From Heterodontus francisci (lineage: Eukaryota), in the NCBI RefSeq assembly GCF_036365525.1, contig NC_090413.1:26798262-26862261 (forward strand): DNA of 64,000 nt, given 5' to 3'. The notes under the pieces are model-generated. The model saw nothing but the letters and a program-made list of their open reading frames with translations. It did not search any database and was not told the origin of the DNA. Position 1 is the stretch's first letter, and each line of letters opens with the position of its first letter. The position numbers and the translations under genes are program-made. Positions 2,789 through 38,602 of this stretch are shown here, one piece after another.

Positions 2789-2892
2789 GAGTCAAACCTA
2801 CCTGAGGCCCCATTACAGACTCCGCGGGTAAACTAATGTATTAAATAGATCCCCTTTTCTGAATTACTCATTCGATTTCCATCCTTGTGCAG

Positions 2893-4126: not shown

Positions 4127-4132
4127 AATAAA
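4127..4132 (+). terminator. Putative polyadenylation signal of lectin A
   Basis: AATAAA about 510 nt after the stop, followed by a GT/T-rich tract (~4150-4175). Confidence 0.6.
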
Positions 4133-4970: not shown

Positions 4971-7881
4971 ACCCAGGCACCAGAAACGACAACGGCAAAC
5001 CCAGCCCTGTCGACCCTGCAAAGCCCTCCTTACTAACATCTGGGGGCTTGTGCCAAAGTTGGGAGAGCTGTCCCACAGACTAGTCAAGCAACAGCCTGAC
5101 ATAGTCATACTCACGGAATCATACCTTACAGACAATGTCCCAGACACTGCCATCACCAGACCCGGGTATGTCCTTTCCCACCGGCAGGACAGACCCACCA
5201 GAGGTGGTGGCACAGTGGTATACAGTAGGGAGGGAGTTGCCCTGGGAGTCCTCAACATCGACTCCAGACCCCATGAAGTCTCATGGCATTAGGTCAAACA
5301 TGGGCAAGGTAACCTCCTACTGATTACCATCTACCGCCCTCCCTCAGTTGATGACTCAGTACTCCTCCATGTTGAACACCACTTGGAGGAAGCACTGGGG
5401 GTAGCAAGGGCACAAAATGTACTCTGGGTGGGGGACTTCAATGTCCATCACCAAGAGTGGCTCGGTAGCACCACTACTGACCGAGCTGGCCGAGTCCTAA
5501 AGGACATAGCTGCTAGACTGGGTCTGCAGCAGGTGGTGGGGGAACCAACACGAGGGAAGAACATACTTGACCTCGTCCTCACCAATCTGCCTGCCGCAGA
5601 TGCATCTGTCCATGACAGTATTGGTAGGAATGACCACCGCACAGTCCTTGTGGAGATGCAGTCCCACCTTCACATTGAGGATACCGTCCATCATGTTGTG
5701 TGGCACTATCACCGTGCTAAATGGGTTAGATTTCGAACAGATCTAGCAATGCAAAACTGGGCATCCATGAGGCACTGTGGGCCATCAGCAGCAGCAGAAT
5801 TGTACTCAACCACAATCTGTAACCTCATGGCCCAGCATATCCCACACTCTACCATTACCATCAAGCCAGGAGACCAACCCTGGTTCAATGAAGAGTGCAG
5901 GAGGGCATGCCAGGAGCAGCACCAGGCATACCTCAAAATGAGGTGTCAACCTGGTGAAGCTACAACACAGGACTATCTGCATGCCAAACTGCGTAAGCAG
6001 CATGCGATAGACAGAGCTAAGCGATCCCATAACCAACGGATCAGATATAAGCTCTGCAGTCCTGCCACATCCAGCCGTGAATGGTGGTGGACAATTAAAC
6101 AAATAACTGGAGGAGGTGGCTCCACAAATATCCCCATCCTCAATGATGGGGGAGCCCAGCACATCAGTGCAAAAGATAAGGCTGAAGCATTTGCAACAAT
6201 CTTCAGCCAGAAGTGCCGAGTTGATGATCAATCTCGGCCCCCTCCTGAATTCCCCAGCATCATAGATGCCAGACTTCAGCCAATTTGATTCACTCCGTGT
6301 GATATCAAGAAACAACTGAAGGCACTGGATACTGCAAAGGCTCTGACAGTATTCTGGCAATATTACTGAAGACTTGTGCACCAGAACTTGCAGCGCACTT
6401 AGCCAAGCTGTTCCAGTACAGCTACAACACTGGCATCTACCCTGCAATGTGGAAAATTTCCGAACTTTGACCTGTACACAAAAGGCAGGACAAGTCCAGC
6501 CCAGAAACTACCGCCCCATCAGCCTACTCTCAATCGTCAGTAAAGTGATGGAAGGTGTCATCAACAGTGCCATCAAGCGGCACTTGCTTAGCAATAACCT
6601 GCTCAGTGACGCTCAGTTTGGGCTCTGCCAGGGCCACTCAGCTCCTGACCTCATTACAGCCTTGGTTCAAACATGGACAAAAGAGCTGAACTCAAGAGGT
6701 GAAGTGAGAGTGATTGCCCTTGACATCAAGGCAACATTTGACCGAGTATGGCATCAAGGAGCCCTAGCAAAACTGAGGTCAATGGGAATCAGGGGGAAAA
6801 CCCTCTGCTGGCTGGAGTCATACCTAACACAAAGGAAGATGGTTTTGGTTGTTGGAGGTCAATCATCTGAGCTCCAGGACATCACTGCAGGAGTTCCTCA
6901 GGGTAGTGTCCTAGGCCCAACCATCTTCAGCTGCTTCATCAATGACCTTCCTTCAATCATTAGGTCAGAAGTGGGGATGTTCGCTGATGATTGCACAATG
7001 TTCAGCACCATTCGCGACCCCTTCTGATACTGAAACAGTCCGTGCAGAAATGCAGCAAGACCTGGATAATATCCAGGATTGGGCTGACAAGTGGCAAGTA
7101 ACATTCGTGCCACACAAGTGCCAGGCAATGACCATCTCCAACAAGAGAGAATCTAACTATCTCCCCTTGACATTCAACAGCATTACCATCGCTGAATCCC
7201 CCACTATCAACATCATAGGGGCTACCATTGACCAGAAACTGAACTGGAGTAGCCATATAAATACTGTGGCTACAAGAGCAGGTCAGAGGCTAGGAATCCT
7301 GAGGTGAGTAACTCACCTCCTGACTCCCCAAAGCCTGTCCACCATCTACAAGGCACAAGTCAGGAGTGTGATGGAATACTCTCCACTTGCCTGGATGAGT
7401 GCAGCTCGAACAACACTCAAGAAGCTCGACACCATCCAGGACAGAGCAGCCCGCTTGATTGGCCCCCCATCTAGAAACATTCACTCCTCCACCACCGACA
7501 CATAGTGGCAGCAGTGTGTACCATCTCCAAGATCCATTGCAACAATGCACCAAGGCTCCTTCGACAGCACCTTCCAAACCCTCGACCTCTATCAACTAGA
7601 AGGACAAGGGCAGCAAATACATGGGAACACCACCACCTGCAAGTTCCCCTCCAAGCCACACACCATCCTGACTTGGAACTATATCACCGTTCCTTCACTG
7701 TCGCTGGGTCAAAATCCTGGAACTCCCTTCCTAACAGCACTGTGGGTGTACCTACCCCACATGGGCTGCAGCGGTTCAAGAAGGCAGCTCACCACCACCT
7801 TCTCAAGGGCAATTAGGGATGGGCAATAAATGCTGGCCTGGCCAGCGATGCCCACATCCGAAGAATGAATTTTTTTAAAAA
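4971..7881 (+). mobile_element. Decayed non-LTR retrotransposon (CR1/Jockey group, Crack/Daphne-like): APE endonuclease + reverse transcriptase
   Basis: ORF pieces with [61 protein letters not shown]; several stops and frameshifts; AATAAA near the 3' end. Confidence 0.93.
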
Positions 7882-9124
7882 TTCCTAACGCCTTTACTTA
7901 CAGTCCTCCACTGGCTATCTCACCGCCAATGAGAGAGCACAATTTAGAGAGCCCAAAGTGGTCTCAATACTGGGACCAGACCAAATTCAAAGCTTGCACA
8001 CCACGACATTCTATTGAGTAAAGGATAGGAACTCTATTGAACTGCTAAATGTCTCGTAGCTTTGCTGCAGGAAAACAAATAAATTTAACCAAACTCCTCA
8101 GGCAGGAATCTCACAGAATTGGCTGGAATCCCAGTTTTACACTCCACCCAATATCGCTGGGAAATGGCTGAGTGGTTACAATTTGGAATTCACTACCAGA
8201 TGCAGTGGTTGATGCAAATAGTGTAGAAGTATTTAAAAAGAAGCTCGATATGTACACAATGGAGAAAGGAATAGAAAGTTTCCTGATAGGGTTAGTTGAA
8301 CAGAGCTAAGAGGTGGTTCCTGTGGAGCATTAACACTGGGATGGACTAGTTGAGCTGAATGGCCCATTTGTGCTGTGAATTTTATGTAATTAATGTTCTC
8401 ATGGTAGCTTGCAAAGGGCAAAAAACTCTGCCTTGTCAGCATTGCACACATCCCAGGAACAAATTGGAAAGAAAGCCCAGTTGGATTACAGCCCTTTAAT
8501 CGCTGCAGCTCAGTTTGAATCAAGCCCTGATTTCTGACACGCAGTTGTCTGCATTTCCAATAATTTTGGTCACCGTTTAGGTTTTATTGCATTGCAACTT
8601 CTATTTCAAACTTTTATCCTACATACTTCCACCAGGCATCTCACTTGCAGCAGGGGAATCGGACGGGAATTCCTTTGTGTGGATTCCATTGGCACTTCTG
8701 GATCTGGAGGAGGAAGCTCAGTGGTTCAGGAGAAGGCATAAACTGTGGGTGTGATTGCTCCTCAGGCAATATATCGCACCCGTCCTTATCCATCATTCTA
8801 TGTGCAAACCTTGGATGGAATTCTGACTCCCTGAAGCTCAAAACATGAGAAAATACTTTTCTGAAATGTGTGCATCATTAATGCTGAGAGTTGCAGTTTA
8901 GTCAATTTGATCATTACCACCTTTTCCTTCCTTCTGTAATATTTACATCATTCATAAATGTCAGTGTCAGCTTTACTTGAACTGGTTTCAATTCTGCAAA
9001 CGGGCGGCTTCCTTGGATTTTAGAAACTGCTCTTGATCTTCAATGTAACAGACAACATAAAGTGACCCATTGCCTTTACAGCTCATTGCGTCGCCCAGCG
9101 CCAGTTTCTGCATCGTCTTACAGA

Positions 9125-9209
9125 ATGGCTGGGGAAACTGCCATTGACGATTATGAGAATTTCAACCTTGAGAGCGAACAAAATCAGCAACAGGCTAAGT
9201 GGATTCCAG
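9125..9209 (+). CDS. Lectin B exon 1 (cytoplasmic tail)
   Basis: MAGETAIDDYENFNLESEQNQQQAKWIP; agaATGG Kozak context; donor gtatat. Confidence 0.75.
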
Positions 9210-12200
9210 GTATATTTTAGTGCAGTGAAGGCAGGAATAAGTGAGCCCAAGTGGGTATTCTTTTGCCTTGAGTATTTTGTTGTTTAAACAGTCAAGAGAG
9301 CTACAGAATATCTGGTTCGCTGGTTTTGCATGAGGGGGACCATTGCTCTTGATGACATCTTGTTAGTCAAGATCTTCTTCGATAATGTCTTCCTTGGCCT
9401 GGGAAATGTCCACATAAAACTGACATTGCAAGGGAGACCGATCCTCTCAGTCAGCTCCTTGTTATTTAAGATACCTTGCAGTATTTGCTGAATCTCTTAG
9501 CAACTTACTGTTTGCTTCCTTATCGCTAACTGTTTGTACAACAACAACTTATATTTATATAGCATCATTAACGTAGCAAAACATCCCAAGGTGCTTCACA
9601 GGAGCATTATCAAACAAAGTTTGTCACCAAGCCGTGTAAGAAGATATTAGGACAAAAGCTTGGTCAAAGAGGTAGGCTTAAGGAACATCTAAAAAGAGGA
9701 AAGAGAGGAGGAGAGGTTTAGGGAGGGAATTCCAGAGCTTAGGTCCAGGCAGCTGAAAGCACAGCCACCAATGGTGGAGCAATGAAAATCAGGGATATTG
9801 AAGAGACCAGAATTGGAGGAGCGCAGAGATAGGGAGGGATGAGGCCATGGAGGGATTTGAAAACTAGAAAAATAACATTCACTTTGAAGATGTGACAAAG
9901 CCTATCTGACTGTACTCTTGTGCTAACCGCTGCACTGCAGTTGATTCAGCAATAGAATGTCTTGCTGTAATTTTCCAGATTTGTTTTATTCTTGTAAACC
10001 GATTCCGTGAGCCCCAAATTCCTGGGCTCAGCCGTAGGAGAAGTCCTCGAGCTCTTTTAAGGTGTCAACTGTGGCTCTGTGATAGTCCTCTCGCCTCCAA
10101 GTCAGAAGGTTGTGAGTTCACTAACCAGTCCAGGGATTTGAGCACATTATCTAAACTGACATCCTTGTGCGATACTGAGGGCTGCACTGTCAGAAGTATT
10201 GTCTTTCAAATGAGATGCAAAACCGAGGCCTCAGCTGATCTGGCAGGTGGGACTAAAAGATCCCAAGGCACTACGTGAAGAAGAGCAGAGCAGTTCTGCC
10301 TGGTGTCCTGGCCAATGATTATCTCTCAAAACTGATGACCTGGTTCTTATCTTATTACTGTTTCGGGATCTTACTGTGCTCAAATTGTTTCCTACACTAT
10401 AACACTTCAGAAATACTTCATTAGCTGTAGAATGTTTTGGGATGACCTGAGGATGTTAAAAGCTCGATATAAATCCACTGTTTCTGTTACATGTTCCTGA
10501 TATTTGGTATTAGTATTCTCAAGGCTACAGCTTGAAAGAATCAATGGTAATAGTGTGCTTATTGGCAGTAATTGGGTTTCCTCATCATTACGAAGATTTG
10601 AACACCATATAATATGATATTCTAACCAGTACCATCTTTGGAATATCTCAGATAGCCGATTCAAGTCACACATCTGTGGAAAGGGGCTGATGCTCCTAAT
10701 TTTCATCGTCCTCAGTGTCTTCCTCATTCTTCTGATCACCGGAGTCATTAAATGTAAGTAACTTTACACTTTTGTCCATGTTGTTCTTTTTTTATTCACT
10801 CTTGGAGTATGAGCATTGCTGGCAAGGGCAGCATTTATTGCCCATCCCTAGTTGCCTTTGAGAAGGTGGTAGGTTTTAGACTTGAATTGCTACAGTCCAT
10901 GTGGTGAAGGTTCTGCCACAATGGATTCAGACTTGGTAATTAAACACAACTGTCCAACAACAGCATTGTTTCCAGGTCAACTTAGGTGTGACTGATTGTA
11001 ACAAAGGAGGCAATTTATTGAGACAAGTCATTTAATGACACATAGCGTCACCGACTCTGGGACGTTTTAATGTAAAACTATGGCACTGAGGTAGCCAAAG
11101 CTTCAGTGTGGGCAAGTATAGAAACTTCCAGAATGTGGCTCCGTGTCAAATCATTTCCCCTTCTTGCAAGCCCATCAATGTATTCTTCAAGACTGTTCTG
11201 GAATCGTTACATTGGGTCTGGCTATATGATCAGCAATCTGCAAGCTTTGTTCGAAAGAGAACATGTTTAAAGAACTTGTGCAAATGACTGTAGAAAGCCA
11301 GATTAATAGACTGACCCTCCAAAACTTAGAGTCTATGTCATTTACTTATGGATATGTCTGGATAAGATTATATTTATGCCTCACACATCAGGTATAACAA
11401 TGAGAAGCTAATTGTATTAAGTTATGCTACAAGATGGTTATCGAACATTTGCTTAATCTGCCTCATTAATCAAGCAACATCAGCTGGTTTCTGAAGGGTA
11501 AGAGGCCAGTGTAACAAAGTGGAATATTGTCCTTTCATGGCCCTTGGTGCGAAGCTGGCCGACAATCAAAGTTTCTTCTTTCTGACGGCTCCCAAGAATC
11601 CTGAGTGAAATCAGTTTAATGTAGGTGCCAATGAGTTCAAAATAGGCTGGAGGACAAAGTCATAACTCGATACTAATGAGACCAAACTGGGCAGATTTAC
11701 TTCGGAGAGATAACATCTAGAAATACCAACACTCCACCACACAGAATAAGAGGCATGCAAAAGGCAAAATATTGCGGATGCTGAAAATATGAAATAGAAA
11801 CAGAAAATGCTGGTAATATTCAGTATGTCCAGCAGCATCTGAAGCATTAACTGGGTTTCTCTTCACAAATGCTGATGAGTATTTCCAGTGTTCACTGTTT
11901 ATATTACAGGATAACAGGGGCCAGAATTTTATCACCCCACCTCAAAGAGCAGGCTGGTAGCCAATTAACGGCCACTTAAGGGCCTCTTCCCGCCCCCATG
12001 GGGATTTTACCATTGACAGGCCTGAGAAAAGCCACCTGACAAATGTTGGCGGCCTTTTGACGGCCTGGGGGGGGGGTCCCGCCTGATCGGGCATCCTGTG
12101 CCCGATGGAGGGACGCCCTTAAAGCCCCAACTACCCCAAACACCCACTCTGTCCCCCGCCCCCCAATTGACCCCCCCCCCTTGCCTCGCCAGGAAACAAC

Positions 12201-15200
12201 CAATCACCCCCAGCGAGGCCCCAAAAACCTACCTCTTTTCCGGGCCGTCCTTCCTCTTGAAGCTGGGTTGCAGTCCCACGGTAAACACCGCTCCCATTGG
12301 CCCTGCTGATTCTAAGAGCTGTCGGCCCGTTAATCGGCCAGCAGCTCCATTAGGTGGGGCTTTCTGCCTCAATGCGGTGGAAGTCCCGCCTAAGCCCAAT
12401 TAAGGGCCTGGGAACTGTAAAATATGGTCTGGATCCCCAGGCCCGGTGGGATCGCCACTGACTTTCGGTCGGTGGACGGCTCCCATCCGACAAGCGAAAA
12501 ATTCCAGCCAGAATGTGGATTTGGGCCACGTAGCCTTTCAAAGGTTGAGTTCCCCATCTCAGTTACGCCACTTATAGCAAATCTTCCCCAGCAATATAGT
12601 CATAGATGCAGTCACCCAAGTCACCCTATATTGACACAGGCCTGGGTGTTGATCACTTTCCAAAAGTGGCCATGCTACATCTCACAATCTAACTCAGGAA
12701 ATGGGGAACGGGGGAAAATGTATTTATTTTTATATCTGTTTGGAGTTGGGTGTGGATAAAGAGAAAAGAGGAGAGCGGGCAGAGGAGAGGAAAGGATTAA
12801 AATATTTGAACCACGATATTAACTCAGGTTTATGGCTGATAGACATCAAGAAACCATTTCTTGTTTCTCTTCAAATGAGCAGTTCCATCAGCTAATGCCA
12901 GGAGACTGAACAGATAGCCAAGGTTTAGATGCTACTTGTGACATTATTGGTGGAACAGTTTATTTTAGAGCAGAGGCTGAAGAATAGTTAATGATAAAAC
13001 TCATGTCACAACGCCAAACGCGGGGGGGAGCAGGAGCAATGGAATCGATTCTGAAGTCTATTTTAATGCTGATGAAATCTTGCCCTGAACTTCAGTAACA
13101 TTGCAATCGGCTCCAAGTCATAAGGAAGTTGGAGATATCTTGCAAAAAAACAAAATCAAGTTCTTCAGATATTGTGGCAGCATAGTCAATGCCTGCTTCG
13201 CAATTTTGCAACTTCCCCAACAGCATGTTTGACATTAAAAATAGCCTGCCCTATCCAACAGCAGAGCAGTGGTGTTATACTTTACAGATCGAAATCTGTT
13301 GATCATCCTGACTTTTCAATAGGTTTCATTCATTGTGACAATTGGAAGGGTTTGTTGCTGGTAATTCCAGATTTGAAAAAGTTAATTTACTATCTCTTGG
13401 CTGTGCTAAATTAACTTTGCACCTAAATTCTTGCTGGTTTCTAAGGTTCAGAGGCCAATGGGGCAGTGGAGGAGTTTCAGTCGCAAGTCCAGATGCAAAT
13501 CTCTCAGACGATGAATAATGGTGAGTGGAATATCATTGATTGCAGTGAAATTGGCATCATTGCAGGAGCTTCACCTGCACAAGCTCGTGGTTCCAGAGTG
13601 TTATGGACAAAATTGAGAGGGAACTGAAGCTTCTGTTCCCTTTTCTTTAATGTCACTAATCAATGTATTTTTTGAAAAGGGAGATGTGTGTGTTTCTTAA
13701 CCCCTGAATATATGGCCAATTTGAATAACCAGCAGCATGCTTTTTGTGGGCTTAAATAAAGAGATTATTTTTATTCACACGTTTACCCTAAAAGTCTCGC
13801 GCTACATCACTCACTCACCACTCACTCACACTTGAGAAAGCAAGTCAGAGTTTGGTTTTCTGTACCGGTGCATTTCAATAGGAACAGGCTTGCAGACCTT
13901 TAGAATGTCATAGCCTCCAGTTTTCCAGGCATAGGCATTGTGCCTTTGTTGCTGACTCTCCAGCTGTTTGAGGACTGACTAGTTTCTCCCTGGTGCTTAG
14001 TTTAGTTTAGTTTAGTTTAGAGATACAGCATTGAAACAGGCCCTTTGGCCCACCGAGTCTGTGCCGACCATCAACCACCCATTTACACTAATCCTACACT
14101 AATTCCATATTCCTACCATATCCCCACCTGTCCCTATATTTCCCTACCACCTACCTATACTAGTGGCAATTTATAATGGCCAATTAACCTATCAACCTGC
14201 AAGTCTTTGGCATGTGGGAGGAAACCGGAGCACCCGGAGGAAACCCACGCAGACACAGGGAGAACTTGCAAACTCCACACAGGCAGTACCCGGAATTGAA
14301 CCCGGGTCGCTGGAGCTGTGAGGCTGCGGTGCTAACCACTGCGCCACTGTGCCGCCCTTAAATAAATTCCTTCTTAAATAAATGAATGAACCACAATGGA
14401 CAGTAAAATGACTTCTACAATTTTGGCCCAGACTCTGAAGTATCTCAAGCTTCCGGAAAGTTCCTAATTGAATAAAGAAGGAATTTTCCTCGACACAAGA
14501 TCAGGGAGCAGGTTGTTCAACCTTGCCCGTCTAAGAGCAAAGTCCAAAGTACGGAAAGTCCTCATCAGGGAACTCCTCTTTGCTGACGATGCCGCATTAA
14601 CATCTCACACTGAAGAGTGCCTGCAGAGTCTCATCGACAGGTTTGCAGCTGCCTGCAATGTATTTGGCCTAACCATCAGCCTCAAGAAAACGAACATCAT
14701 GGGGCAGGACGTCAGAAATGCTCCATCCATCAATATTGGCGACCACGCTCTGGAAGTGGTTCAAGAGTTTACCTACCTAGGCTCAACTATCACCAGTAAC
14801 CCTCTGAGATCTCTGGGCTTGTCCAATTCTGGCCTCTTACACATCCCTGATATTCATTGTTCCACCATTGGCAGAAGTGCCTTCAGTTGTCTGTGCCCCA
14901 AGCGGTGGAATTGCCTCTCTTAACCTTTCCACCTCTCTATCCTGTTTTAAGATGCTCTTTAAAACCAACCTCTTTGACCAAGCCTTTGGTCACCTGTTCT
15001 ATTATCTCCTTATATGGCTCAGTGTCACATTTTTCTGATAATAGTCTTCTGAAGCATCTTGAGATGTTTTACTCTGTTAATGGTGCTATATCAAGGCAAG
15101 CTGTTGTTGTCTTTTGTTCTATATTCCTTCCTGTATAAACTTCTTTTTCTGGAGCTGCAATCAGGATTCATCCCATCACCTTCCACTCTAACCAATCCCT

Positions 15201-18200
15201 TCCAGCACCTCAAAGCTGTGTTAAGCATTAGCTCCCTAAGTCTCCCCTTACTCCTAGAAACTGTACGTTGCAAACCGTTTGCCAACACAGCAGTGAATCC
15301 TGTTTGTTTCTCCTCCAAATCTCTGGCATTATTTGGTGTCTGTTAGGAATTGGTTAACACATTCTAGAGAAAGGGATTAATTTTCCCTGCATTGTAACTC
15401 GCACTGCAACCATTTTAAGGTCACTTTCTAAATTCTAACCTTGACGTCTAAATCATTTCTCTCATTTTAGTTTCCGACAAATCAGAGCTGACGGAACTCG
15501 AGCTGCGTATTCGCAATGAAGTGACACAGATGGGGGCAAGAGGTGAGTGGGAGAACAAAGAACAAAGAACAAAGAACAGTACAGCACAGGAACAGGCCAT
15601 TCGGCCCTCCAAGCCTGCGCCAATCTTGATGCCTGCCTAAACTAAAACCTTCTGCACTTCCGGGGCCCATATCCCTCTATTCCCATCCTATTCATATATT
15701 TGTCAAGATGCCTCTTAAACGTCTCTCTGGTACCTGCTTCCACCACCTCCCCCGGCAACAAGTTCCAGGCACTCACCACCCTCTGTGTAAAGAACTTGCC
15801 TCGCACATCCCCTCTAAACTTTGCCCCTCGCACCTTAAACCTATGTCCCCTAGTAACTGACTCTTACACCCTGGGAAAAAGCTTCTGACTATCCACTCTG
15901 TCCATGCCGCTTATAACTTTGTAAACCTCTATCATGTCGCCCCTCCACCTCCGTCGTTCCAGTGAAAACAATCCGAGTTTATCCAACCTCTCCTCATAGC
16001 TAATGCCCTCCAGACCAGGCAACATCCTGGTAAACCTCTTCTGTACCCTCTCCAAAGCCTCCACGTCCTAGAAGGTTGGATCAATTGAATGGCAGCATCA
16101 GAAACATTGAGCAGGAACCAATCACCAAAAACTCGGGGAAGAATATTGCCCACCTCACTCAGAATTAGCGGGGGACCACATTTCCCCTTTGCCATTCTTT
16201 GGCTCCACCACTGGCAAGCACGGAGATGTGAACACTGAGTGAGGAGAAAGTCAAGGCTGGCTGTGATACACACCATGCCCGAATAGCCTGCCAGCACTCA
16301 CTGTTTAAGCCCACATAGTGAAAATGGCCAGCCATGGAACCCTGTTCTCCTGGCACCCAAGGAACCCAACTGGAGCCTTCAAGAAAGGAAACATATGTGA
16401 AGCTCAGAAAAGAATTTTGTCCCCTATAGAGACATAGAAAATTTATGTCATAGAAGGAGGCCATTCGGCCCAATATGTCTTTGCCAGCCCAAGAAAAGCA
16501 ATCCCGCCATGAACTTTTTTAAAAATTTAGCAGTGTGGTTTAATAAGAATTTTGACCCCTACCTCATTCTGATTGCAAACACCAACCCCTTGCAATTTGA
16601 ATGAATTTAATTTTTGTTCCATGGTGAGCACTAAGTGCAAGACATTCCCCTGCATGTGACAGCACCTTTTCCTCCTTTTCCCACCTGTAGCTGTTTTAGG
16701 GATTTACGCAAACCCCGCTGGAAGGATCCTGAACAATATCCTGCCCCACAACCAACACCGTCAGGAACAAATTAACTGGTCATTCTTTCTATGGCTGTTT
16801 TTATCACGGAAGCTTTAATCACATTAAAAAGTAATGCATCGCATGAGGGAATTTTGTGTGTGTGGCAGTGTGAAAATGTGTGTGTTTGAGTGAATGTGAG
16901 TATGTGTGTGTGAGAGTGCGTGTTTATGTGAGTGGACAGTGTGTGTGGGGAGAGAGTGTTGATGTGCGTGTGAATGTGTGTGTGTGTGTGTGTGTGTTTG
17001 TATTTATCACTCCTTATGATCTAATCTTGATTCCCTCTTGCTGTTTAGTTTTGGAGGAGTTATCGAGGACAAAGGCTAACTTAATATCCACAATGTCTAG
17101 AAAACTGGAAATGTTGCCAGAACCTGGTGACTTATCTGAAGGTATGTCAATTTAAATAAAGTGAGTATCTGTCGCAGCTTTTTAAAGACAGGGCTAAAAT
17201 GTGGCGAGTCGAAGAGACTTAGTAGTTGGCAGGAAAAAAGACAGAGGCGCAAGGGGAGAGCCAACTGTGTAACAGCCCCAACAATCAAATTTTTCTGTAG
17301 CACCTGTGGAAGAGCCTGTCACTCTAGAATTGGCCTTTATAGCCACTCCAGGCGCTGCTTCACAAACCACTGACCACCTCCAGGCGCTTACCCATTGTCT
17401 CTCGAGATAAGGAGGCCCAAAAGAGTATCTGTCGCAGCTTTTTCCCTCATCCTCTCCTGAAGGCATTAAGACAGATTTCCTGCTTCGGCAACCTCACCAG
17501 CGTGATTCTGATGATCTCCCCGGGATTCGCAAGGAGCTGTCAGGGCAGGCGACCAAAAGTTTTTCCAAAGAGGTAGGTTTTTAAGGAGCATCTTTGAAGG
17601 AGGAGAGCGAGGTGGAGAGGTTTAGGGAGGGAATTCCAATGGTGGAGCGATGAAAATTGGGGGATGCGCACGAGGCCACAACTGCAGGGAAATCATTGTT
17701 TATAATGCAAAGTGCAACTCCTCTGAAACCTGGCAACTGTGGTCAACTGAAAATCACTTCTGACATGTTGTGTTCATTTAGTAACATTTGTGCTAGTTTG
17801 TTGATTTGGCCCCTCAGCCTTGGCAGGTAATTGTTGAATGTTTTTCAGCATGTCAGAACCTTCAATGTCCTCACAATTGGATGTACTTCAATGAGAGCTG
17901 TTACTACTTTTCAACTAAACGAGCGTCATGGAACATGAGCAGTTTGTACTGTTCCCTCCGTGGGACCCACCTTCTCGTCATAAACAGCATTATTGAGCAG
18001 GTAAAGCTACGTTTACACCATAAGCTCTGTTTCATCAGTCTGTGTGAGATTGAGAAGCTGGTGCTGGAGAGGGTACAGAGGACGTTTACCAGGAATGAGG
18101 GATTCAGTTATGTGGAGAGATTGGAGAACAGAATGATAGAATGGTTACAGCATAGAAGGAGGCCATTCGGCCTGTCGTGTCCATGCTGGCTCTCTGCAAG

Positions 18201-21029
18201 ACCACCTCATCTCGTCCCACCACCCACCTCCCCCCAGCCTTTTCCCCATAGACCCACAAATTGTTTCTCTTCAAATAATTATCCAATTCGAGAATTTGGG
18301 ATTGTTCTTCTTAGAGTAGAGAGGATTGAGGGAAGACCTGAGCTGTTCAAAATTCCAAAGGAATTTGATAGAGCCAGTAGGAGAAAATGTTTCCTCTGGA
18401 AAGTGGGTCAATAACCAGAGGTCATAGATTTAAAATAATTGGCAAAAGAACTAGAGAGGAAATGAGGAGAAATATCCTCACATGGAGAATTGTTAAGATC
18501 TGGATCACACTATCTGAAAGACTAGAGGAAACAGATCCCATTGGACCTTTCAAAAGGACAACTGGACATGTACTTGAGAACAGGATGAATTTGCAGGGTT
18601 ATGGGGAAAAGCTGGGGTGTGGGATTAATTGGAGAGCTCGTCGGAAGAGCTAGCACAGGTTCAATGGGCTGAAGGATTCTAGGATCCTATGATAGGGTTA
18701 CCAAAGTTTTCCAGGTCTCAACCAGACAGATTTTCTTTAAGTAAGAGCATTATGGGTTACAGAACCAAGGCAGGTGGATGGAGCCTGGATACAGATCAGC
18801 CATGATCTAATAGATTGGCAGAAGAGGCTTGAGGGCCTGAATGACCTGGTCTTGTTCCTGTCTCGCTAACAATATGGCAGCTAAGGAGATAGGGATAGTG
18901 CGTTGTGGGGAAATGGCAGGGTGGTGAGGTGATTTGGATGGGCCCAGTGAGGTAGGTGAGGAGAAGGGTAGGAAGAGTCCCGGAGGATGGGATGTTGGAG
19001 TACAGCAGGGTGGAGGGGATGTTGGAGTGTGAGGGTGAGGGGCTGCTGGAGTGTGACAGGGTGGAGGGAATGTTAGTGTGTGACAGGGTGGAGGGGATGT
19101 TGGAGTGTCAGGGTGAGGGGATTTTGGAGTGTGACGGGGTGGAGGGAATGTTGGAGTGTGAGGGTGAGGGGCTGCTGGAGTGTGACAGGGTGGAGGGAAT
19201 GTTAGTGTGACAGGGTGAGGGGATGTTGGAGTGTGAGGATGAGGGGATGTTGGAGTGTGACAGGGTGGAGGGATGTTGGAGTGTGACAGGGTGGAGGGAT
19301 GTTGGAGTGTGACAGGGTGAGGGGATGTTGGAGTGTGAGGGTGAGGGGATGTTGGAGTGTGACAGGGTGAGGGGATGTTGGAGTGTGACAGGGTGAGGGG
19401 ATGTTGGAGTGTGACAGGGTGAGGGGATGTTGGAGTGTGAGGATGAGGGGATGTTGGAGTGTGAGGATGAGGGGATGTTGGAGTGTGACAGGGTGGAGGG
19501 GACATGGCAGAAGATGGGATTGGGGTTTGAGTACTTGAGGCTTCCTGTGCTGCTGATGCAATTCATTCAGAACCTAATACCCTTCAAGAGATAATGGGGC
19601 TGATTTCCCTCCCCCGGGATCTCAGTGTAAGTTTGATCCTGTGCTTTCCACAGGTGCCAACTTGATCCCAGCTGAACCTGGCCGTGTTTTTAATATCCAG
19701 CACTGAGTTGGAAGCACCTCAGAATCTGGACACGGCCAATAGCAAGGAGGGAATTTGTGCGCTATTTAAAGATGACATTACACTGGTTGCTGTCAGGAAA
19801 AGGAGTCAGGCCAATGTCCCAATGATTCCTTGTCCAGGTTTGCTTGGAGCAGTGTCCTGGAGATTAATCGTTAATTCCTGGAGATTCCAGGGCAATCCTA
19901 GAGGGTTGGTGAGTCTAGAATTAAGCCTGCCTGAGGGTCCATTACAGCTAATATAACATATTAAATATTTTACTTATTTAATTACTGATAATGTTCTTTT
20001 TCCATCCTTGTGCAGCATTTTGTTACCTTGGAAACTGAATCCAGGAGATTCTGGATTGGTCTAACTGATCACAACAGTGAGAATAAATGGCAATGGGTGG
20101 ATGGCACAGATTATGAGACAACACAAAAGTAAGTTCAGTCAAACAATACACAATGCAAGTGCCAGACATTGGCCATCTGAGTGACTTACAACACAGTCTG
20201 TACACCTGCCTTTACTTCATTAAAAATAAATGACTTAATGTAAAGACATTGTTTCCAATATCATCACTTTCAATATTACCGGAGCTGGATATTGTTGGAA
20301 ACAATTATTATTGTGTTATAAAGACGTGGAACCTTCCATAGAGACGAAGAACACTGATAGTGCGATTAAGAAAAAGGAATTCTGATGGAAATCCTCTCTA
20401 GCAACAAGTGTATTTATGTAGTGCCTTTGACATAGAAAAACATTTCAAGGCTCCTCACATGAGTGTTATCAAACAAACTTTGGCACTAAACCACGTAAGG
20501 AGATATTAGGACAGGTGACCAACAGCTTGGTCATAGAGGTAGGTTTTAAAGAATGTCTTAAAGGAGGAGGGAGAGGCGGAGAGGTTTAGGGAAGGAATTC
20601 CAGAGCTTCAGGTTAAGGCAGCTGAAGGCATGGCAGCCTATGATGGAGTAATCAAAATCAAGGATGCATAAGAGGCCAGTGTAGAGATAGGAGTGTAGAG
20701 ATCTCCTAGGGTTGTAAGGGTAAAGGAGGTGACAGAGATCGGGAGGGTCGAGACCATGGAGAGATTTGAAAACTAAAGGGAATCTTAATTGTTCTCCTGA
20801 CCATATGATTCACTCCTTAAAGAGATTACTAGTTTACCTGATGATGTCGCGGTGAATCCCCAGGATTGGATACAGTAATAACTAGGTTTCGTTCCTCAGA
20901 TTTTGGATGCCGGGAGAACCAAACAGTGTTGATGAAGGTTGCGTTCACCTCTGGATGAATGGAATGTGGAACGATGCTCCATGCTCGATGAAAGATTACT
21001 TCATCTGTGAAAAGGAGGCTCACCAATGA
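9125..21029 (+). CDS. Type II C-type lectin receptor B (CD209/CLEC4/CLEC10A/CLEC17A-like), 8 coding exons, 273 aa
   Basis: join(9125..9209,10652..10753,13446..13520,15471..15542,17049..17141,17849..18000,20016..20128,20900..21029) = 822 nt, all GT-AG and phase-consistent; cytoplasmic YENF, TM segment, neck, CRD with CP..W..F..SCYYFS, WIGL, EPN, WND. Confidence 0.88.
9540..9895 (-). mobile_element. L2-like LINE 3' fragment (family also at ~14800-15110+, 20400-20780-, 23327-23745-, 27060-27415-, 32555-33265+, 42718-43248-, 54277-54590-)
   Basis: Shared block caacaacttgcatttatatagcaccttt...gagaggtttagggagggaattccagagc recurring across the window; translations resemble the L2 ORF2 C-terminus (LWNSLP). 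Confidence 0.75.
10061..10475 (+). mobile_element. DeuSINE-type tRNA SINE (other copies ~21160-21435-, 24075-24527+, 30100-30375-, 32094-32490+, 56813-57250+, 59015-59430+, 61785-62060+, 62185-62392-)
   Basis: tRNA-like head (gtggctc...agtcagaaggttgtgagttca), central block gatgagacgttaaaccgaggcc...aaagatcccatggcact as recalled for the Deu domain, L2-like tail. Confidence 0.7.
10652..10753 (+). CDS. Lectin B exon 2 (transmembrane)
   Basis: DSRFKSHICGKGLMLLIFIVLSVFLILLITGVIK; donor gtaagt. Confidence 0.82.
11755..11909. mobile_element. Degraded palindromic Penelope-terminus derivative
   Basis: Left part matches 37760-37845 (aaatattgcggatgctg...aaatgctgg); right part is its degenerate reverse complement. 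Confidence 0.6.
11919..12509. mobile_element. GC-rich MITE-like element
   Basis: Imperfect TIRs GGCCAGAATTTT / AAAATTCCAGCC; abrupt GC/CpG-rich composition relative to the flanks. Confidence 0.5.
13446..13520 (+). CDS. Lectin B exon 3 (neck)
   Basis: CSEANGAVEEFQSQVQMQISQTMNN; phase 1-1; donor gtgagt. Confidence 0.7.
13599..13996. mobile_element. Partial LTR related to the solo LTR at 34107
   Basis: Starts TGTTAT and shares the motif order of 34107-34400 (tggccaatt, ttt..gagttaa/ggcttaa, tttatt). Confidence 0.4.
13997..14357 (-). mobile_element. Young V-domain tRNA SINE (HE1-like), full length
   Basis: Minus strand: GGGCGGCACAGTGGCGCAGTGG (A box), GGTTCAATTCC (B box), V-domain gggtttcctccgggtgctccggtttcctcccac, (CTAAA)n tail. 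Confidence 0.92.
14473..14799 (+). mobile_element. Internal RT fragment of RTE LINE
   Basis: [13 protein letters not shown]...FTYLGS; near-identical to ~51912-52238. Confidence 0.9.
15471..15542 (+). CDS. Lectin B exon 4 (neck)
   Basis: VSDKSELTELELRIRNEVTQMGAR; pyrimidine tract + tag acceptor; donor gtgagt. Confidence 0.78.
15553..16067 (-). mobile_element. CR1-type LINE 3' fragment with microsatellite tail
   Basis: ALERVQKRFTRMLPGL...SYEERL..LGLFSLE.RR.RGD; KFFTQRVV; (aagaaca)n tail. Confidence 0.9.
16855..16998. repeat. Imperfect (TG)n microsatellite
   Basis: Visible TG-rich run. Confidence 0.8.
17049..17141 (+). CDS. Lectin B exon 5 (neck)
   Basis: VLEELSRTKANLISTMSRKLEMLPEPGDLSE; phase 1-1; donor gtatgt. 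Confidence 0.75.
17184..17422 (+). mobile_element. 5'-truncated RTE LINE 3' end with 21-bp TSD
   Basis: Matches ~52770-53005; encodes [17 protein letters not shown]; flanked by GAGTATCTGTCGCAGCTTTTT at 17163-17183 and 17423-17443. Confidence 0.92.
17849..18000 (+). CDS. Lectin B exon 6 (CRD N-terminal part)
   Basis: ACQNLQCPHNWMYFNESCYYFSTKRASWNMSSLYCSLRGTHLLVINSIIEQ. Confidence 0.93.
18060..18690 (+). mobile_element. Old CR1 3' fragment with a nested antisense CR1 piece (~18129-18290)
   Basis: LERVQR.FTR...SY.ERL; RGHRFK translations. Confidence 0.7.
18985..19501. repeat. Second copy of the G-rich minisatellite, intron 6 of lectin B
   Basis: Same unit family as 1-1866, more degenerate at its 5' end. 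Confidence 0.95.
20016..20128 (+). CDS. Lectin B exon 7 (CRD, WIGL)
   Basis: HFVTLETESRRFWIGLTDHNSENKWQWVDGTDYETTQ; donor gtaagt. Confidence 0.93.
20900..21029 (+). CDS. Lectin B exon 8 (CRD, EPN/WND, stop)
   Basis: KFWMPGEPNSVDEGCVHLWMNGMWNDAPCSMKDYFICEKEAHQ*. Confidence 0.93.
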
Positions 21030-21604
21030 AAATGTTACTAAGTCCAGTGCAGTGTTTGCAACTGTTCAACATTTGGAATGTGAAAGCAAAAACTAACCCT
21101 TCCTTCTTTAAGGACTCCTTATGGCTCATACATCTCCACATAGCTGGCAGTAAAGAAAAAACTTGCATTTATATAGCACCTTTCATCACTTCCTGACTTC
21201 GCAAAGAGCTTTACAGCCAACAAAGTACTTTTGAAGTGCAGTCTCTGTTGTAATAATGGAAAAATGGCGGCCAACTTTACGCACAGCAAGCTCCCACAAA
21301 CAGAAATGTGATAATGACCAGATAAGCTGTTTTTGTGATGTTGATAGAGAGATAAATATTGGCCCAGGACACCGGGGAGAACTCCCTTGCTCTTCTTTGA
21401 AATAGTGCCATGGGATCTTTTACATCCACCTGAGATTTTATGCTGAAGTCACAGCAGCCAATCAGGAGGTTCCACTCACACTCCCTCCCTGTCCTCTGCC
21501 CCACAGAAATTCAACCAGAAAGTGGGTGATGTTGTCGTACCTACAGGTCCTGTCCCATCACTGTCTTCATTCATTTTCACCTGCATTGCTGCAATGCCAA
21601 GGCA

Positions 21605-22270
21605 CACAGTCCGAAAGCAGGACCTCGAGCTTCCGGTTGCTTGTCATTTCAACACTCCCCCCTGCTCTCATGCCCACATCTCTGTCCTGGGATTGCTGCA
21701 GTGTTCCAGTGAACATCAACGCAAGCTCGAGGAACAGCATCTCATTTACCGATTAGGCACGCTACAGCCTGCCAGACTGAACATTGAGTTCAATAATTTC
21801 AGAGGCCCCCTTTTTTTTATTTTTAGTTATTTTTTCTTTCTTTCTTTTTTCTTTTTTCTTATTTATTATTTGTTTTTGTTTATTTTATTTTAGTTTGTTT
21901 CATCATTCATTTTTTTACCATGTGCCTACCCACTGTTTTTTGTGCTTGGGGCCAGGGCTGTTCATTTTTCTGTCAATTAACACCGTCTCTGCACTAACGC
22001 TTTGTCTTTCAACACACCATTAACATACCGTTTGCCTTTGTTCCATGACCTTCTGGTCAGTTATTCTCCGTGACCCTCTGTCCTATCAACACCTTGCCCT
22101 TTGTTATCTCTTGCCCCACTCTCGCTTTATTTGCTTATAACCTTTCACATTTCTAACCTTTGCCAGTTCTGATGAAGGGTCACTGACCTGAAACGTTAAC
22201 TCTGCTTCTCTCTCCACAGAGGCTGCCCGACCTGCTGAGTATTTCCAGCATTTCTTGTTGTTATGCCAGG
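21605..22270 (+). mobile_element. Penelope-like element 3' end (GIY-YIG endonuclease C-terminus + pseudo-LTR)
   Basis: LPVACHFN...H..ISVLGL...RKLEEQHLIYRLGTLQP..LNIEF matches the typical PLE endonuclease C-terminus; followed by a T-rich tract and a hammerhead motif. Confidence 0.85.
22165..22201 (+). ncRNA. Minimal type I hammerhead ribozyme motif
   Basis: AGTT-CTGATGA-AG[GGTC act GACC]T-GAAA-CG-TT-AACT: helix I AGTT/AACT, both core boxes intact, helix II, palindromic ACGT helix III. Confidence 0.75.
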
Positions 22271-22545
22271 AAACATTTGCAAGGCTTTGAGGAAAGAGCT
22301 CAAGGAGGGGAGTGGGACGAGTTAAATAGTTCTTTCAGAGAGCTGGCACAGGCATGATGGGCAGAATGGCCTCGTCCTGTGCTGAACGATTCTATGATTT
22401 TATCAGCGATCGGAAAACACATTAAAAAAAAGTCAAGACGTTCATTCCCAGTATTTTCTGCAGGAACCAACAACTCATAATTCATGTCCTGATGGGTTTA
22501 ATGAGGCTTCACGCTTATTGTTTGTGATGTGACACTTTTGAGTAA

Positions 22546-22551
22546 AATAAA
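22546..22551 (+). terminator. Candidate polyadenylation signal of lectin B
   Basis: First AATAAA seen after the stop at 21029 (ATTAAA at 22421); GT-rich sequence downstream. Confidence 0.45.
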
Positions 22552-23129
22552 CCTTTGGAGTGCCCTTGTGTATCTGTCATGGAGTTATAATGTTATAACA
22601 CACCATAAACTGTGGAGCATCTGATGAAAACAGTCACACAATTCAGCACTGTCTCACATTTCAGGGCTGGAGTGAGGGTGAAGTGGGGGGGGGCAGAATT
22701 TCCTGGCTGTTTTCCAGTGCATCAGTGACATATGGACCGTGCAGAAAATTTCTTTCGCTTTGGGAATTGGGTGGAATTCCATTCTGCACCCCCCCCCCCC
22801 CCCCACAATTCCATCCCCACCCCCACAACGTTTGTATGTTATCAGTAGCCCAGCAATTGCAGGTTTTCTGCGTTTACACTGCTGATGCACTCTGGTCATG
22901 TTCGATTGAGATACTAGGTACTGATACTGATACTGAGTTAGTGTGGGCACCGTATCTATGTTTAGAAAGTAAGTGTGGTATTTGGGGTTTATTGGCTACC
23001 AGTCACTGTGTCTTTTGCTACTGTGCGATCATCTTCGGGGGTGAGAGAGGGATTTCTCAGAGGTTTTCCTAAATTAGCCTAAAATTTATTTTTCTTTCCC
23101 TCCGTTTTTGTGCCCCTTCCAGGAGACTG

Positions 23130-23273
23130 CACGTTCCCTCTAAGCTGCACGAAAGTCACCATGCACAAATCGGCCCCTTTAAATTACCACACGTGTGAAG
23201 CCGTGCAAAAATATTTAAAGGGACTGTGTACTTAAATTCCCCCACACTTGAAAATAAATTAGAGGGAATGTTG
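23130..23273. mobile_element. Small MITE (related element at ~59709-59810)
   Basis: TIRs ACGTTCCCTCTAA / TTAGAGGGAATGT. Confidence 0.5.
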
Positions 23274-24569
23274 ACTGCATAGTGGGGGCAGGGGGTGTGT
23301 GTGTGGCGTGGTAGTGCAATGGGTCACAACAACAACAAAAACTTGCATTTAAATAGCACCTTTAATGTAATAAAACATCCCAAGCTGCTTCACAGGAGCA
23401 TTATCAGAGAAGATTTGACACCAAGCCACAGGAGATATTAGGACAGGTGACCTAAAGATTGGTCAGAAAGGTGGGTTTTAAGGAGCGTCTTATAGGAGGG
23501 GGGAGAGAGAGCGAGGGAGGTGGAGAGACTTAGGGAGAAAATTCCAGAGCTTTGGGCCTCAGCAGCTGAAGGCACGTCCGCCAATGGTGGAGTGAAGGTA
23601 ATTGGGAATGCACAAGAGGACAGAATTGGTGGAGCTCAGTGATCTCGGAGGGTTGTAGGGTTGGAGGAGATCACAAAGATAGGGAGGGTTGAGGCCTTGG
23701 AAGGATTTGAAAACATGGATAAGAATATTAATATTTGAGGCATTGCATATTACAGTTGCCAATTGTTATTCCTACACCCGTCTCTTTACTGTAATTTATA
23801 ACTGCAACACACATTTCCTCTGAATGGAACATTCTGCTGTTGGCAACAAGTGATTATGGGATTTGAGATGTTGTGACTTGTCCTGGCAGGTCAGTTTCTG
23901 ACTGTTCAGTCCCATTCACCTCATGGCTGAGTGCACAGTGTTTGTACCTGTGGAGATCTAGTCCCTAGGACTGAACAGTCTGTCATTTGAGTAAAGGTCC
24001 TGGTGCTCAGACAATTTCGGATCTTGTATCCTCCTATCATCCACTGTTGCCCGGTCATATCACTTCCAGCATTGGGTCAGTATCATGTACCTCAGTCAGC
24101 AGCACTGTTGCCTCTGAGTCAGAAGGTTTTGGGTTTAAGTCCCACTCCAGAGACATGAGCACAAAAACAGCAAGGCTTACACTCTCTGCGCAGTACTGAG
24201 GGAGTGCTGAATAGTTGGAGGTACCTTCTTTCAGATCAGATATCAAACCAAGGCCCTGTCTGCCCTCTCAGGTGGAGACAAAAGATCCAATGCCGCTGGT
24301 TAGAAGAAGAGCAGGGGAGTTCTCTCCGGTGTCCTGGTCAATATTTATCTCTCAATCAAAATCACTAAAACAGATTATCTGTTATTACCACATTGCTGTT
24401 TGTGGGATCTTGATGTGCACAAATTGGCTGCATTACAACAGTCAATGCACAGCAAAAGTACTTCATTGGCTGTAAAGCGCTTTGGGATATTTTGCGGTGT
24501 TGAAAGATGATATATAAATGCAAGTCTTCCAACTTGGTCTTCAGCGTCACTGACGAATGGTTTTTAAAA

Positions 24570-36500: not shown

Positions 36501-38602
36501 AGTCTGTCCCGTCCACTTTTGCCGAAGATCTTGTGAACCTCACGAAGGCAGCGTCGGGTGAACGGCTGAAGGCCCCTCCCTGGCATCGAGCGGTCAACCT
36601 ATCGTCTGCAGCAGGGAAACGCTTCATCAGTTTTGCAAAATACAGCAAATTTGGAGATGGTAATGTACTTTCTCCATTAACAGTGTAGCTCCCTTCTTAC
36701 CCTATCTCAGTCCGATTTACCTTTCTCTACTCTTGCCGAATCTCAGGCATTTCCCCCTTGCAAACCATTCCAGCTTACACATGCTTTCAACACTCCTGCA
36801 GTCAAGTGGAAGTAGATCCAATAGTAACTTTCAATTATATATATACTTGAAAATAAAGTTTGTGGGACTATGGGGAAAGAGCAGTAGAGTGGGGCTGATA
36901 GCTTAGTTTAGTTTAGTTTAGAGATACAGCACTGAAACAGGCCCTTCGGCCCAACGGGTCTGTGCTGACCATCAACCACCCATTTATACTAATCCTACAC
37001 TAATCCCAAATTCCTACCACATCCCGACCTGTCCCTAGATTCCCCTACCACCTACCTATACTAGGGACAATTTATAATGGCCAATTTACCTATCAACCTG
37101 CAAGTCTTTTGGCTTGTGGGAGGAAACCAGAGCACCCGGAGAAAACCCACGCAGACACAGGGAGAACTTTCAAACTCCACACAGGCAGTACCCGGAATCG
37201 AACCCGGGTCCCTGGAGCTGTGAGGCTGCGGTGCTAACCACTGCGCCACAGCTCTTTCAAAAGAGCTGGCACAGGTATATTTAGCATGGAAGTTATTATT
37301 GAATATGCTTCCATCACCCTTCCAGGCAGCGCATTCCAGATCACAACAACTCGCTGTGTAAAAAAAAATTCTCCTCCTCGCAACTCTGGTTCTTTTGCCA
37401 ACTACCAACCCTCCTGCCACCGGAAACAGTTATTCTCTATCTACTCTGTCAAAACCCCATGCAATTTTGAACATCTCTATTAAATGCCCCCTTAATCTTC
37501 TGAACACTAAGGAGGATAATTTCAGCTTCTTCACATAACTGAATGTAGGTGGGGAATATTTCAGCTGTTTTGACACTTTGGCTATTTTAATTCTGGCATT
37601 CCCTTTAAATTTTTGGGGCCCTAAGCCTAAACCTAATCCTTAGAGGATCATTAGGGGATGCAAGGAGGTATTGTGTGGATTTACAGCACAGTAACAGGCC
37701 ATTCAGCCCAACTGCTCCATGCTGGTGTTTATGCTCCACATGAGCTTCCTCCCATCCTAAAATAAAAGCAAAATACTGCGGATGCTGGAAATCTGAAACA
37801 AAAACAAGAAATGCTGGATTCACTCAGCAGGTCTGGCAGCATCTGTGGAAAGAGAAGCAGAGTTAACGTTTCGGGTCAGTGACCCTCCTTCCGAAGAAGG
37901 GTCACTGACCCAAAACGTTAACTCTGCTTCTCTTTCCACAGATGCTGCCAGACCTGCTGAGTGATTCCAGCATTTCTTGTTTTTGTTCCTCCCATCCTAC
38001 TTCATTTTGCCCTTTCTCCCTCATGTGTTTATCTGGCTTCCCCTTAAAAGCATCTACACTATTCATCTCAACTACTCCCTGTGGTAGCTAGTTCCACATT
38101 CTCACCACTCTCTGGTGAGGCTCTCCTGATTTCTGTATTGATTTGTTAATGACTATCTCACATTTATGGTCTAGATGGAATGGGTAGAGATGCTGTTGAT
38201 CACTGTTATATGTTCTTCTACATTGCAGATTTATACTCCGGCTGGGTGGCGAGCTTCTTTCAGAGTGACTTGTTGGTTGAGACGTGGCCAAATTCTGAGC
38301 ACACACTCCTGTCCAACTGCAGCATGAAGTACGCAGTGTACAACGTGAAGAAAGTTACATTCACCGCAAACATCAGCTTCAGCAGCCATGACGATCACTC
38401 AAAATGGTGCGTGACAAGCTCAGGCGGAGATGTTAAGTGGACGTGCATTGGGGATATCAACCGAGACCAGGCGCAGGAACACAGAGGAGGTGGAACTGTC
38501 TGCACCAATGATCCAGTTGTCTGGGATTCTTTCTTGAGCCTAGCTGCATCCTGCGAGATCTGCAACTGTCCTTGCAATGAGGAGCAAAGAAGGAATTTCT
38601 GA
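27482..38602 (+). CDS. DNASE2: Deoxyribonuclease II (lysosomal DNase II alpha), 6 coding exons, 362 aa
   Basis: join(27482..27594,29751..29916,31814..31889,33458..33619,36462..36659,38229..38602) = 1089 nt; signal peptide, SCYND.GQPVDWF..YKLP, YNDQ, GHTKG, GFWLVHSTP.FP, DHSKW, CIGDINR...Q..RGGGT.C. Confidence 0.95.
27713..27880 (-). mobile_element. 3' fragment of the Crack/Daphne-like LINE (others at ~3130-3222, 10785-10925, 26870-27055, 29360-29590, all -)
   Basis: Reverse-complement match to ~7700-7880. Confidence 0.85.
29751..29916 (+). CDS. DNASE2: DNase II coding exon 2
   Basis: FIIYKLPK...GAVGKTVQQFY...HQ. Confidence 0.93.
31050..31470 (-). mobile_element. CR1 3' fragment
   Basis: SRTRGHNFKIR..PFR..VRKQFFTQR..EIWNSLPQKAVEA. 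Confidence 0.8.
31814..31889 (+). CDS. DNASE2: DNase II coding exon 3 (first HxK motif)
   Basis: SDDVAYVLYNDQ...GHTK. Confidence 0.93.
33458..33619 (+). CDS. DNASE2: DNase II coding exon 4
   Basis: GVVLLDQKQGFWLVHSTPHFP...NGQSFLCVTY. Confidence 0.94.
34107..35069. mobile_element. Solo LTR (~963 bp) inserted in a CR1 3' fragment
   Basis: TGTTAC...GTAATA termini; 4-bp near-TSD GGTG/AGTG; host CR1 sequence (gagatgaagaggggtg|gaagaaggctcgtgtgg) rejoins across it. Confidence 0.7.
35988..36348 (+). mobile_element. Young V-domain tRNA SINE (HE1-like)
   Basis: A/B boxes, V domain, (CTAAA)n tail. Confidence 0.92.
36462..36659 (+). CDS. DNASE2: DNase II coding exon 5
   Basis: GTQLLYNNPRVY...SFAKYSKFGD; 198 nt, phase 1-1. 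Confidence 0.94.
36903..37249 (-). mobile_element. Young V-domain tRNA SINE (HE1-like)
   Basis: Reverse complement of the 35988-36348 family. Confidence 0.92.
37760..37985. mobile_element. Palindromic Penelope pLTR mini-element with 14-bp TSD
   Basis: Arms ~37797-37891 / 37893-37987; TTCCTCCCATCCTA at 37746-37759 and 37986-37999; sequence matches 22170-22270. Confidence 0.88.
38229..38602 (+). CDS. DNASE2: DNase II coding exon 6 (second HxK motif, stop)
   Basis: DLYSGWVA...DHSKWCV...CIGDINR...RGGGTVC. Confidence 0.95.

Follow-up and report, generated by a model that had tools for sequence, protein, structure and literature searches.

The window, i.e. the whole stretch of 64,000 nucleotides of the Heterodontus francisci genome that was analysed, contains on its plus strand the lectin B gene, and the sequence downstream of the stop codon of this gene harbours a piece of a Penelope-like element (PLE) with a hammerhead ribozyme motif. 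The initial annotation had placed the motif in the putative 3' UTR of the lectin gene and had proposed a possible independent case of ribozyme control of a lectin mRNA. The features referred to below are the following:

9125 to 21029, plus strand: lectin B gene, encoding P0001 (273 aa), with the last exons at 20008-20128 and 20900-21029
21030 to 22563, plus strand: likely 3' UTR of about 1,534 nt, from contig cover and contig ends and from repeat cover
21150 to 21435: second dispersed repeat of the UTR, with 50-73 matches per position at most positions in the fetched loci
21607 to 22264, plus strand: 5'-truncated PLE copy, with boundaries from matches in the fetched loci
21607 to 21803, plus strand: end of the GIY-YIG coding part within the PLE copy, followed by the 3' UTR of the element and the terminal repeat with the hammerhead
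22165 to 22201, plus strand: minimal type I hammerhead motif, from the sequence, the list of pairs and the class description in PMC4209133
22268 to 22400: third dispersed repeat fragment of the UTR, with 9-27 matches per position and a 76% match to window 41906-42033
22546 to 22551, plus strand: AATAAA, the likely poly(A) signal in use, from contig ends

The lectin gene and its transcript

P0001, the product of lectin B, goes under the name of hepatic lectin-like of Heterodontus francisci in its source. It contains a hydrophobic stretch near the N-terminus and a C-terminal C-type lectin domain (E 5.4e-24), together with the motifs EPN and WND. These motifs are linked to Ca2+-dependent mannose-type binding. 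Among the best 60 of 84 PDB matches, the last exon of lectin B matches collectins, CD209, langerin and similar proteins, and Clec2 is absent from them. An orthologue search with the P0001 protein retrieved only P0001 itself, the cluster of which consists of one member. Two paralogues, lectins A and C, lie upstream of lectin B, and neither of them (2/2 neighbouring paralogues) contains a hammerhead core with helix II within 5 kb past the stop codon. The three genes form a tandem cluster (window 1-3615 and the upstream loci L046-L050), in which lectin A is interrupted by an intron of about 23 kb, and tblastn points to a possible stop close to where one of its coding exons ends. Lectins A and B contain the same G-rich minisatellite in corresponding introns (1-1867 and 18982-19502), which is a mark of the tandem duplication.

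The stop codon TGA of lectin B (21027-21029) is located 1,136 nt upstream of the motif, in agreement with the distance of 1.1 kb given in the initial annotation, and, as was also noted there, neither AATAAA nor ATTAAA occurs between the two; the positions given for the signals ATTAAA (22421), AATAAA (22546), AGTAAA (21149) and GATAAA (21351) are correct. Dispersed repeats account for 1,077 nt (70%) of the likely 3' UTR. The repeat at 21150-21435 is putatively SINE-like, and ARAGORN detected no tRNA in it.

The expression evidence consists of contigs from runs that were only guessed to be RNA. The GT..AG join from 20128 to 20900 was present in 4/4 runs of sample S1. Mismatch-free X1 contigs cover 20900-21185, 21157-21323 and 21406-21673, the last of which crosses the 5' junction of the PLE copy, and another X1 contig (22198-22251) bears private letters of the window copy; among the 40 best of 480 candidates, a full match to this stretch was found only at the lectin B locus. 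The downstream contigs end at 22563 in X2 and X4 and at 22558 in X5, which belongs to a second study, i.e. 7-12 nt past the end of the AATAAA at 22546-22551, which is a weak hint of a poly(A) site. No cover was found at 22566-22700 in the runs compared, and no single contig spans the UTR. Since contigs cover both sides of the motif and end just past the AATAAA at 22546, the motif likely lies in the lectin 3' UTR, between the stop codon and the poly(A) site, as had been proposed.

The X5 contig, which derives from organism B, opens with 25 nt of the PLE 3' end, where 31 are needed for a bridge. Over about 320 nt, it differs from the window at 10 letters and by an insertion of 3 nt. Because this contig carries the PLE 3' end, the insertion likely predates the split of the two species, and since it is likely common to organism B, the insertion has persisted.

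Among the contigs listed, none carries the private letters across the cut site. The contig depth of the exons and of the downstream part was 137.9 and 89 in X1, 20.6 and 28.1 in X2, 104.2 and 94.5-180.6 in X3, and 5.11 and 4.7 in X4, respectively, but a similar depth on both sides of the motif is no proof that cleavage does not occur, since depth cannot rank the parts of a gene. Holes in the cover, such as most of 22264-22563 in the listed X1 contigs and the unique part in X6, prove nothing either. Long contigs at 23362-24336, past the likely poly(A) site, were present in all four S1 runs and may represent a separate transcript or a longer form of the UTR. The 3' arm of the motif runs into a pyrimidine tract ending in CAG (window 22196-22219), which to our eye resembles a 3' splice acceptor, and no splice joint into this tract was among the joints listed in the runs compared.

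The transposon copy and its hammerhead motif

The PLE copy in the lectin UTR is regarded as 5'-truncated because other copies extend upstream into GIY-YIG coding sequence. It stops at the short-tail 3' end, and a further tail of about 35 nt is present in about half of the PLE copies listed. Its coding remnant is identical in 63 of 66 amino acids to the end of a 924-aa ORF in locus L139, which has the hammerhead motif at both ends of this ORF, and the window copy matches the 3' end of L139, with the motif located in the PLE terminal repeat. Both matches agree with the earlier description of a Penelope remnant that carries the motif in sense orientation. The full-length element starts at L139:2674 with the first bases of the hammerhead, and the letters around the helix I start presumably resemble an initiator element.

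Intact ORFs of 902-924 aa were found in 4/4 regions fetched for intact elements. RVT_1 (E 5.5e-6) and GIY-YIG (E 0.0019) were detected in the one intact ORF that was scanned, both under the curated cut-off, and a GIY-YIG match at the cut-off was obtained in locus L012; a Pfam scan of the window remnant alone gave no match. In related copies, a single ORF encodes RT followed by a C-terminal GIY-YIG domain, and the intact element contains a C-x4-C-x2-C linker between RT and endonuclease. A CX2-5CxxC linker, 5' truncation, inverted partial copies and an optional tail, all of which were found in this family, are features of endonuclease-bearing PLEs according to PMC8557442, and two alternative 3' ends or an optional tail of 30-40 nt are given as a PLE signature in PMC8557442 and PMC11167929. 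Judging by the linker, the sequence suggests that the family is of the Neptune type.

Inspection of the sequence yielded a hammerhead motif of 37 bases at 22165-22201 on the plus strand. Helix I (4 bp) is formed by 22165-22168 with 22198-22201 and encloses the CUGAUGA box (22169-22175), an unpaired A (22176), helix II (5 bp, 22177-22181 with 22185-22189, consisting of the pairs G•U, G-C, G-C, U-A and C-G and closed by a 3-nt loop), the GAAA box (22190-22193) and the ACGU palindrome (22193-22196), in which U22196 corresponds to U16.1; U17 is found at 22197 and the predicted cut is 22197/22198. Position, sense strand, intact boxes, helices I and II and the palindrome are all as initially annotated, and the cut predicted there after 22197 agrees with the position of U17. 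Since the ACGU is without a loop, helix III is impossible within one molecule. The search with hammerhead models that had been suggested as a check returned nothing for the motif: at the gathering score, Rfam gave 0 matches in the whole window and hence no hammerhead family, and at E<=10 over 20000-24500 it gave four unrelated weak matches only.

Minimal hammerheads (min-HHRs) occur in the pseudo-LTRs of metazoan PLEs (Cervera and De la Pena 2014, PMC4209133). The lectin-UTR motif resembles those described there in its type I arrangement, the intact core boxes CUGANGA and GAAA with U16.1 and H17, the short helix I of 4 bp, helix II, the unpaired base between 9 and 10.1, and the loopless, palindromic 15.2-16.2 without a monomeric helix III, as well as in its place in the terminal repeat and in the mostly single motifs of truncated copies. 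It differs from them in the pair 10.1-11.1, which is G•U instead of the usual G-C; G10.1-C11.1 is typical of min-HHRs, yet outside the search descriptor of that paper (PMC4209133). The G•U reduces the expected activity, and class membership is unaffected by it. Among 47 copies spanning the motif, this pair was A-U in 17, G•U in 14, G-C in 12 and of another kind in 4. Structure and context make the motif a PLE minimal hammerhead in which one pair is atypical. The intact elements L137-L140 carry G10.1-C11.1 and mostly C at core position 4, and in other PLE subfamilies U4 is combined with G•U or A-U as the 10.1-11.1 pair; C4 is carried by 21/84 sampled copies, about a quarter.

The shark family shares with the anole Poseidon element PAc (Frangieh et al. 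2024, PMC11167929) the vertebrate host, the minimal hammerhead in the pLTR and the two alternative 3' ends 30-40 nt apart. Unlike in PAc, the linker C-x4-C-x2-C points to the Neptune type, and the ORF of the shark element starts well after the motif. A literature search, with most subscription papers outside its reach, found no report of a PLE hammerhead from sharks, and the one searchable supplement of PMC4209133 contained no shark terms.

The 6.0-Gb assembly contains 2,624 exact copies of the 37-mer, and the intact core pattern occurs 28,804 times as opposed to 76 times for the reversed control, so that the motif is not due to chance. The density of intact cores is one per 418 kb per strand, and 92 copies of the PLE 3' end were counted in 1,160 kb taken from stretches at fixed positions, i.e. 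about 1 per 13 kb. This copy number is far above the 4,000-9,000 given for coelacanth and frog in PMC4209133. The chance of a sense core in one 1.5-kb UTR is 0.4%. Under the assumption of 20,000 UTRs with a length of 2 kb, chance alone would place about 96 sense cores in them, and a match beside some lectin gene is therefore unremarkable. The most common form of the 37-mer just 3' of the motif has 19,600 exact copies as opposed to the 2,624 of the motif, which is an unfair test of conservation because the subfamilies differ inside the motif.

Three more copies with the motif lie elsewhere in the window, two of them as an inverted pair at 37800-37984 and one at 41233-41338, besides a weak piece at 11799-11841. 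The nearest motif-bearing copies begin 15.6 kb off, far beyond the likely poly(A) site; the lectin-UTR hammerhead had no partner motif on either strand at distances of up to 15 kb, and in sense orientation it had none. Short PLE ends often form inverted pairs, arranged head to head around the hammerhead (at several loci and in the window at 37800-37984), which would give long hairpins if transcribed. The 5' ends of copies pile up at the first four hammerhead bases, with 7.5 per nt as opposed to 0.2-1.7 elsewhere.

Cleavage and conservation of the motif

In a nearest-neighbour folding model, which leaves out tertiary contacts and proteins, the 37-mer prefers a structure in which the first core box is paired with the cut site. 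The pair probability of helix II was 0.98 in the 37-mer and 0.25 or less in a wider context, and the hammerhead-ready fraction amounted to 0.0006-0.024 in three local windows. The active swapped dimer was calculated at -8.5 kcal/mol, compared with -7.3 for each monomer on its own and -23.6 for the most stable dimer, which is inactive; according to this model, a trans-dimer of the lectin motif would be energetically unfavourable. A split, Clec2-like hammerhead with GUC at 21972 was considered as well and rejected, since it was predicted to make up about 1e-13 of the ensemble. A minimal hammerhead from a schistosome remained uncut as a monomer, and its dimer showed only little cleavage (PMC4209133).

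The X1 contig starting at 22198 was considered as a sign of cleavage and rejected, as word length and private letters explain this start: a contig built from 31-letter words that carries the letters 22221 and 22228 must span 22198-22251, as seen. Contigs with other letters likewise start at 22198, in X1 and X6.

Among 122 PLE copies in 1,624 kb, 30 start at the beginning of helix I, 9 within 22195-22200 and 1 at 22198, which suggests that PLE RNA starts at helix I and is copied uncut. Since copies start at helix I and long copies pass through the cut site, the copied RNA would be mostly uncut. RNA of the PLE family is very abundant in the runs, with hundreds to over a thousand contigs per run, so that trans partners exist. 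With such partners, a small share of the lectin mRNA could be cleaved in trans via the ACGU, as an unselected side effect of the transposon that would equally strike any host RNA with an intact sense copy, given abundant PLE RNA and protein; trans-dimer cleavage, if any, would not be specific to the lectin mRNA. The intact core and the abundant family RNA fit such incidental cleavage, as do the intact 924-aa ORFs and the finding that the anole PLE ribozyme cuts once its protein is added (PMC11167929). However, the folding model disfavours the active dimer, the 10.1-11.1 pair of the lectin-UTR motif is G•U as opposed to the G-C of the intact copies L137-L140, and the truncated copy lacks the greater part of the element RNA, which the protein may need. 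In the same anole study, the ribozyme did not cleave unless protein was present, and none of the RNA reads ended at its site (PMC11167929). We consider incidental cleavage of the lectin mRNA unlikely.

The conservation of the window copy was assessed by a private-change test on 35 long copies, many of which were chosen by likeness to the region, with the duplicates L020-L023 excluded. In the window copy, private-like changes affect 9 of the 480 flank sites and none of the 37 motif sites (Fisher p = 1.0), in a test of little power, and the expectation that the motif is better conserved than the PLE flank thus met no signal in this copy. The probability of no change was 0.50 for the 37-nt motif and 0.81 for the 11 core bases. 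With a divergence of only about 2%, the window PLE copy has an even chance of an intact motif (P about 0.5), and there is no sign of selection on this copy.

Family-wide, the tests of conservation gave mixed results. In 78 copies, changes amounted to 4.9% in the core and 5.1% in the flank (p = 0.85), while 122 copies, in a local alignment favouring intact motifs, gave 3.6% and 5.1% (p = 0.037). Within 28 copies anchored on both sides, 4 core changes were observed and 11.1 expected (p = 0.014). The core/flank ratio was 0.58-1.06 for singletons only, which is not significant, and 0.74-1.58 for the set of 84 copies. The strict core is retained in under half of the sampled copies (37/82 and 36/84). 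A weak excess of conservation would fit selection on source elements, not on inserted copies.

The parallel drawn in the initial annotation was that with the Clec2 lectins. The mammalian Clec2 3' UTR contains a discontinuous type III hammerhead, which is split by hundreds of bases, active within one transcript and found in several mammals (Martick et al. 2008, as described in PMC2950038, PMC6155905, PMC4041007 and PMC6765202), and which lowered a reporter by 80% (PMC2950038, PMC6155905), and the Clec2 proteins are lectin-like, probably without Ca2+-dependent sugar binding (PMC4041007). As in Clec2, the shark core belongs to a gene that encodes a C-type lectin domain and lies past its stop codon and ahead of the likely poly(A) signal. 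Unlike the Clec2 ribozyme, which folds as a discontinuous type III hammerhead within one transcript, the shark motif is a contiguous minimal type I hammerhead that needs a partner, and it lies inside a young, high-copy piece of a transposon. Its host gene, with EPN and WND, is hepatic lectin-like and outside the Clec2 group. As for conservation across species and paralogues of the kind seen in Clec2, the motif is absent from 2/2 paralogues and the contig of organism B stops short of it. The parallel is superficial, as ribozyme topology and kind of lectin both differ.

A ribozyme kept by selection to lower or time lectin expression, in parallel to rodent Clec2, is highly improbable. The sense orientation, the likely place within the UTR, the 0 private changes in 37 nt, the insertion likely common to a related species and the Clec2d precedent with its 80% reporter drop (PMC2950038) would fit such a co-opted regulator, but the intactness is expected by chance, no stable helix III has been gained, and the split arrangement with GUC 21972 is predicted at 1e-13. 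Furthermore, tens of thousands of equal motifs exist, both paralogues A and C are without one, and a lectin with EPN and WND resembles sugar-binding lectins, not Clec2, so that the independent ribozyme control proposed for the lectin mRNA is not upheld. Hardly conceivable, finally, is an effect of the insertion without cleavage, e.g. by a PLE internal promoter that starts short RNAs at 22165 or by a longer UTR: family copies and the full-length element do begin at the first bases of the motif and Drosophila Penelope has an internal promoter (PMC2377424), but the contigs give no readable 5' ends, no joint or loose end indicates a separate transcript of the locus, and the property would be common to every other copy.

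Origin and meaning of the motif in the lectin UTR

The motif in the lectin UTR is very probably a neutral, non-cutting passenger. The minimal hammerhead would be part of the terminal repeat in every copy of this PLE family, a truncated copy of which likely landed by chance in the lectin 3' UTR, presumably by reverse transcription of PLE RNA. The lone motif would not be expected to cleave, as its helix III needs a second molecule, and in one tested PLE cleavage also appears to need the protein of the element; the motif probably looks intact because the copy has decayed by only about 2%. Membership in a very large PLE family, truncation, single copy and low divergence are established here. The copy number, the paralogues without the motif, the repeat-rich UTR, the lack of a cis partner and the folding model speak for a passenger; the intactness of all core bases, the insertion likely shared with organism B and the abundance of trans partners speak against it.

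As such a passenger, the motif adds a further copy to a class of RNAs that was described in 2014 and has tens of thousands of members in this genome, and it matters little in itself. It also calls for caution, since chance alone would be expected to put hammerheads into shark UTRs. It is very unlikely that abundant PLE RNA and protein lead to cleavage in trans of those shark mRNAs, perhaps a hundred including that of this lectin, in which a sense PLE hammerhead is intact. With a motif that is intact, single, likely transcribed and tagged by private letters, the locus lends itself to testing, and the observation that copies start at helix I, not at the cut site, bears on what PLE hammerheads do. 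If cleavage in the lectin mRNA were true, a vertebrate transposon ribozyme would act on a host message in trans, which would be a possible first step of domestication. If trans cutting were true, the stability of an innate-immune lectin mRNA would be tied to transposon activity, and it would show that a Clec2-like regulator can begin from the end of a transposon.
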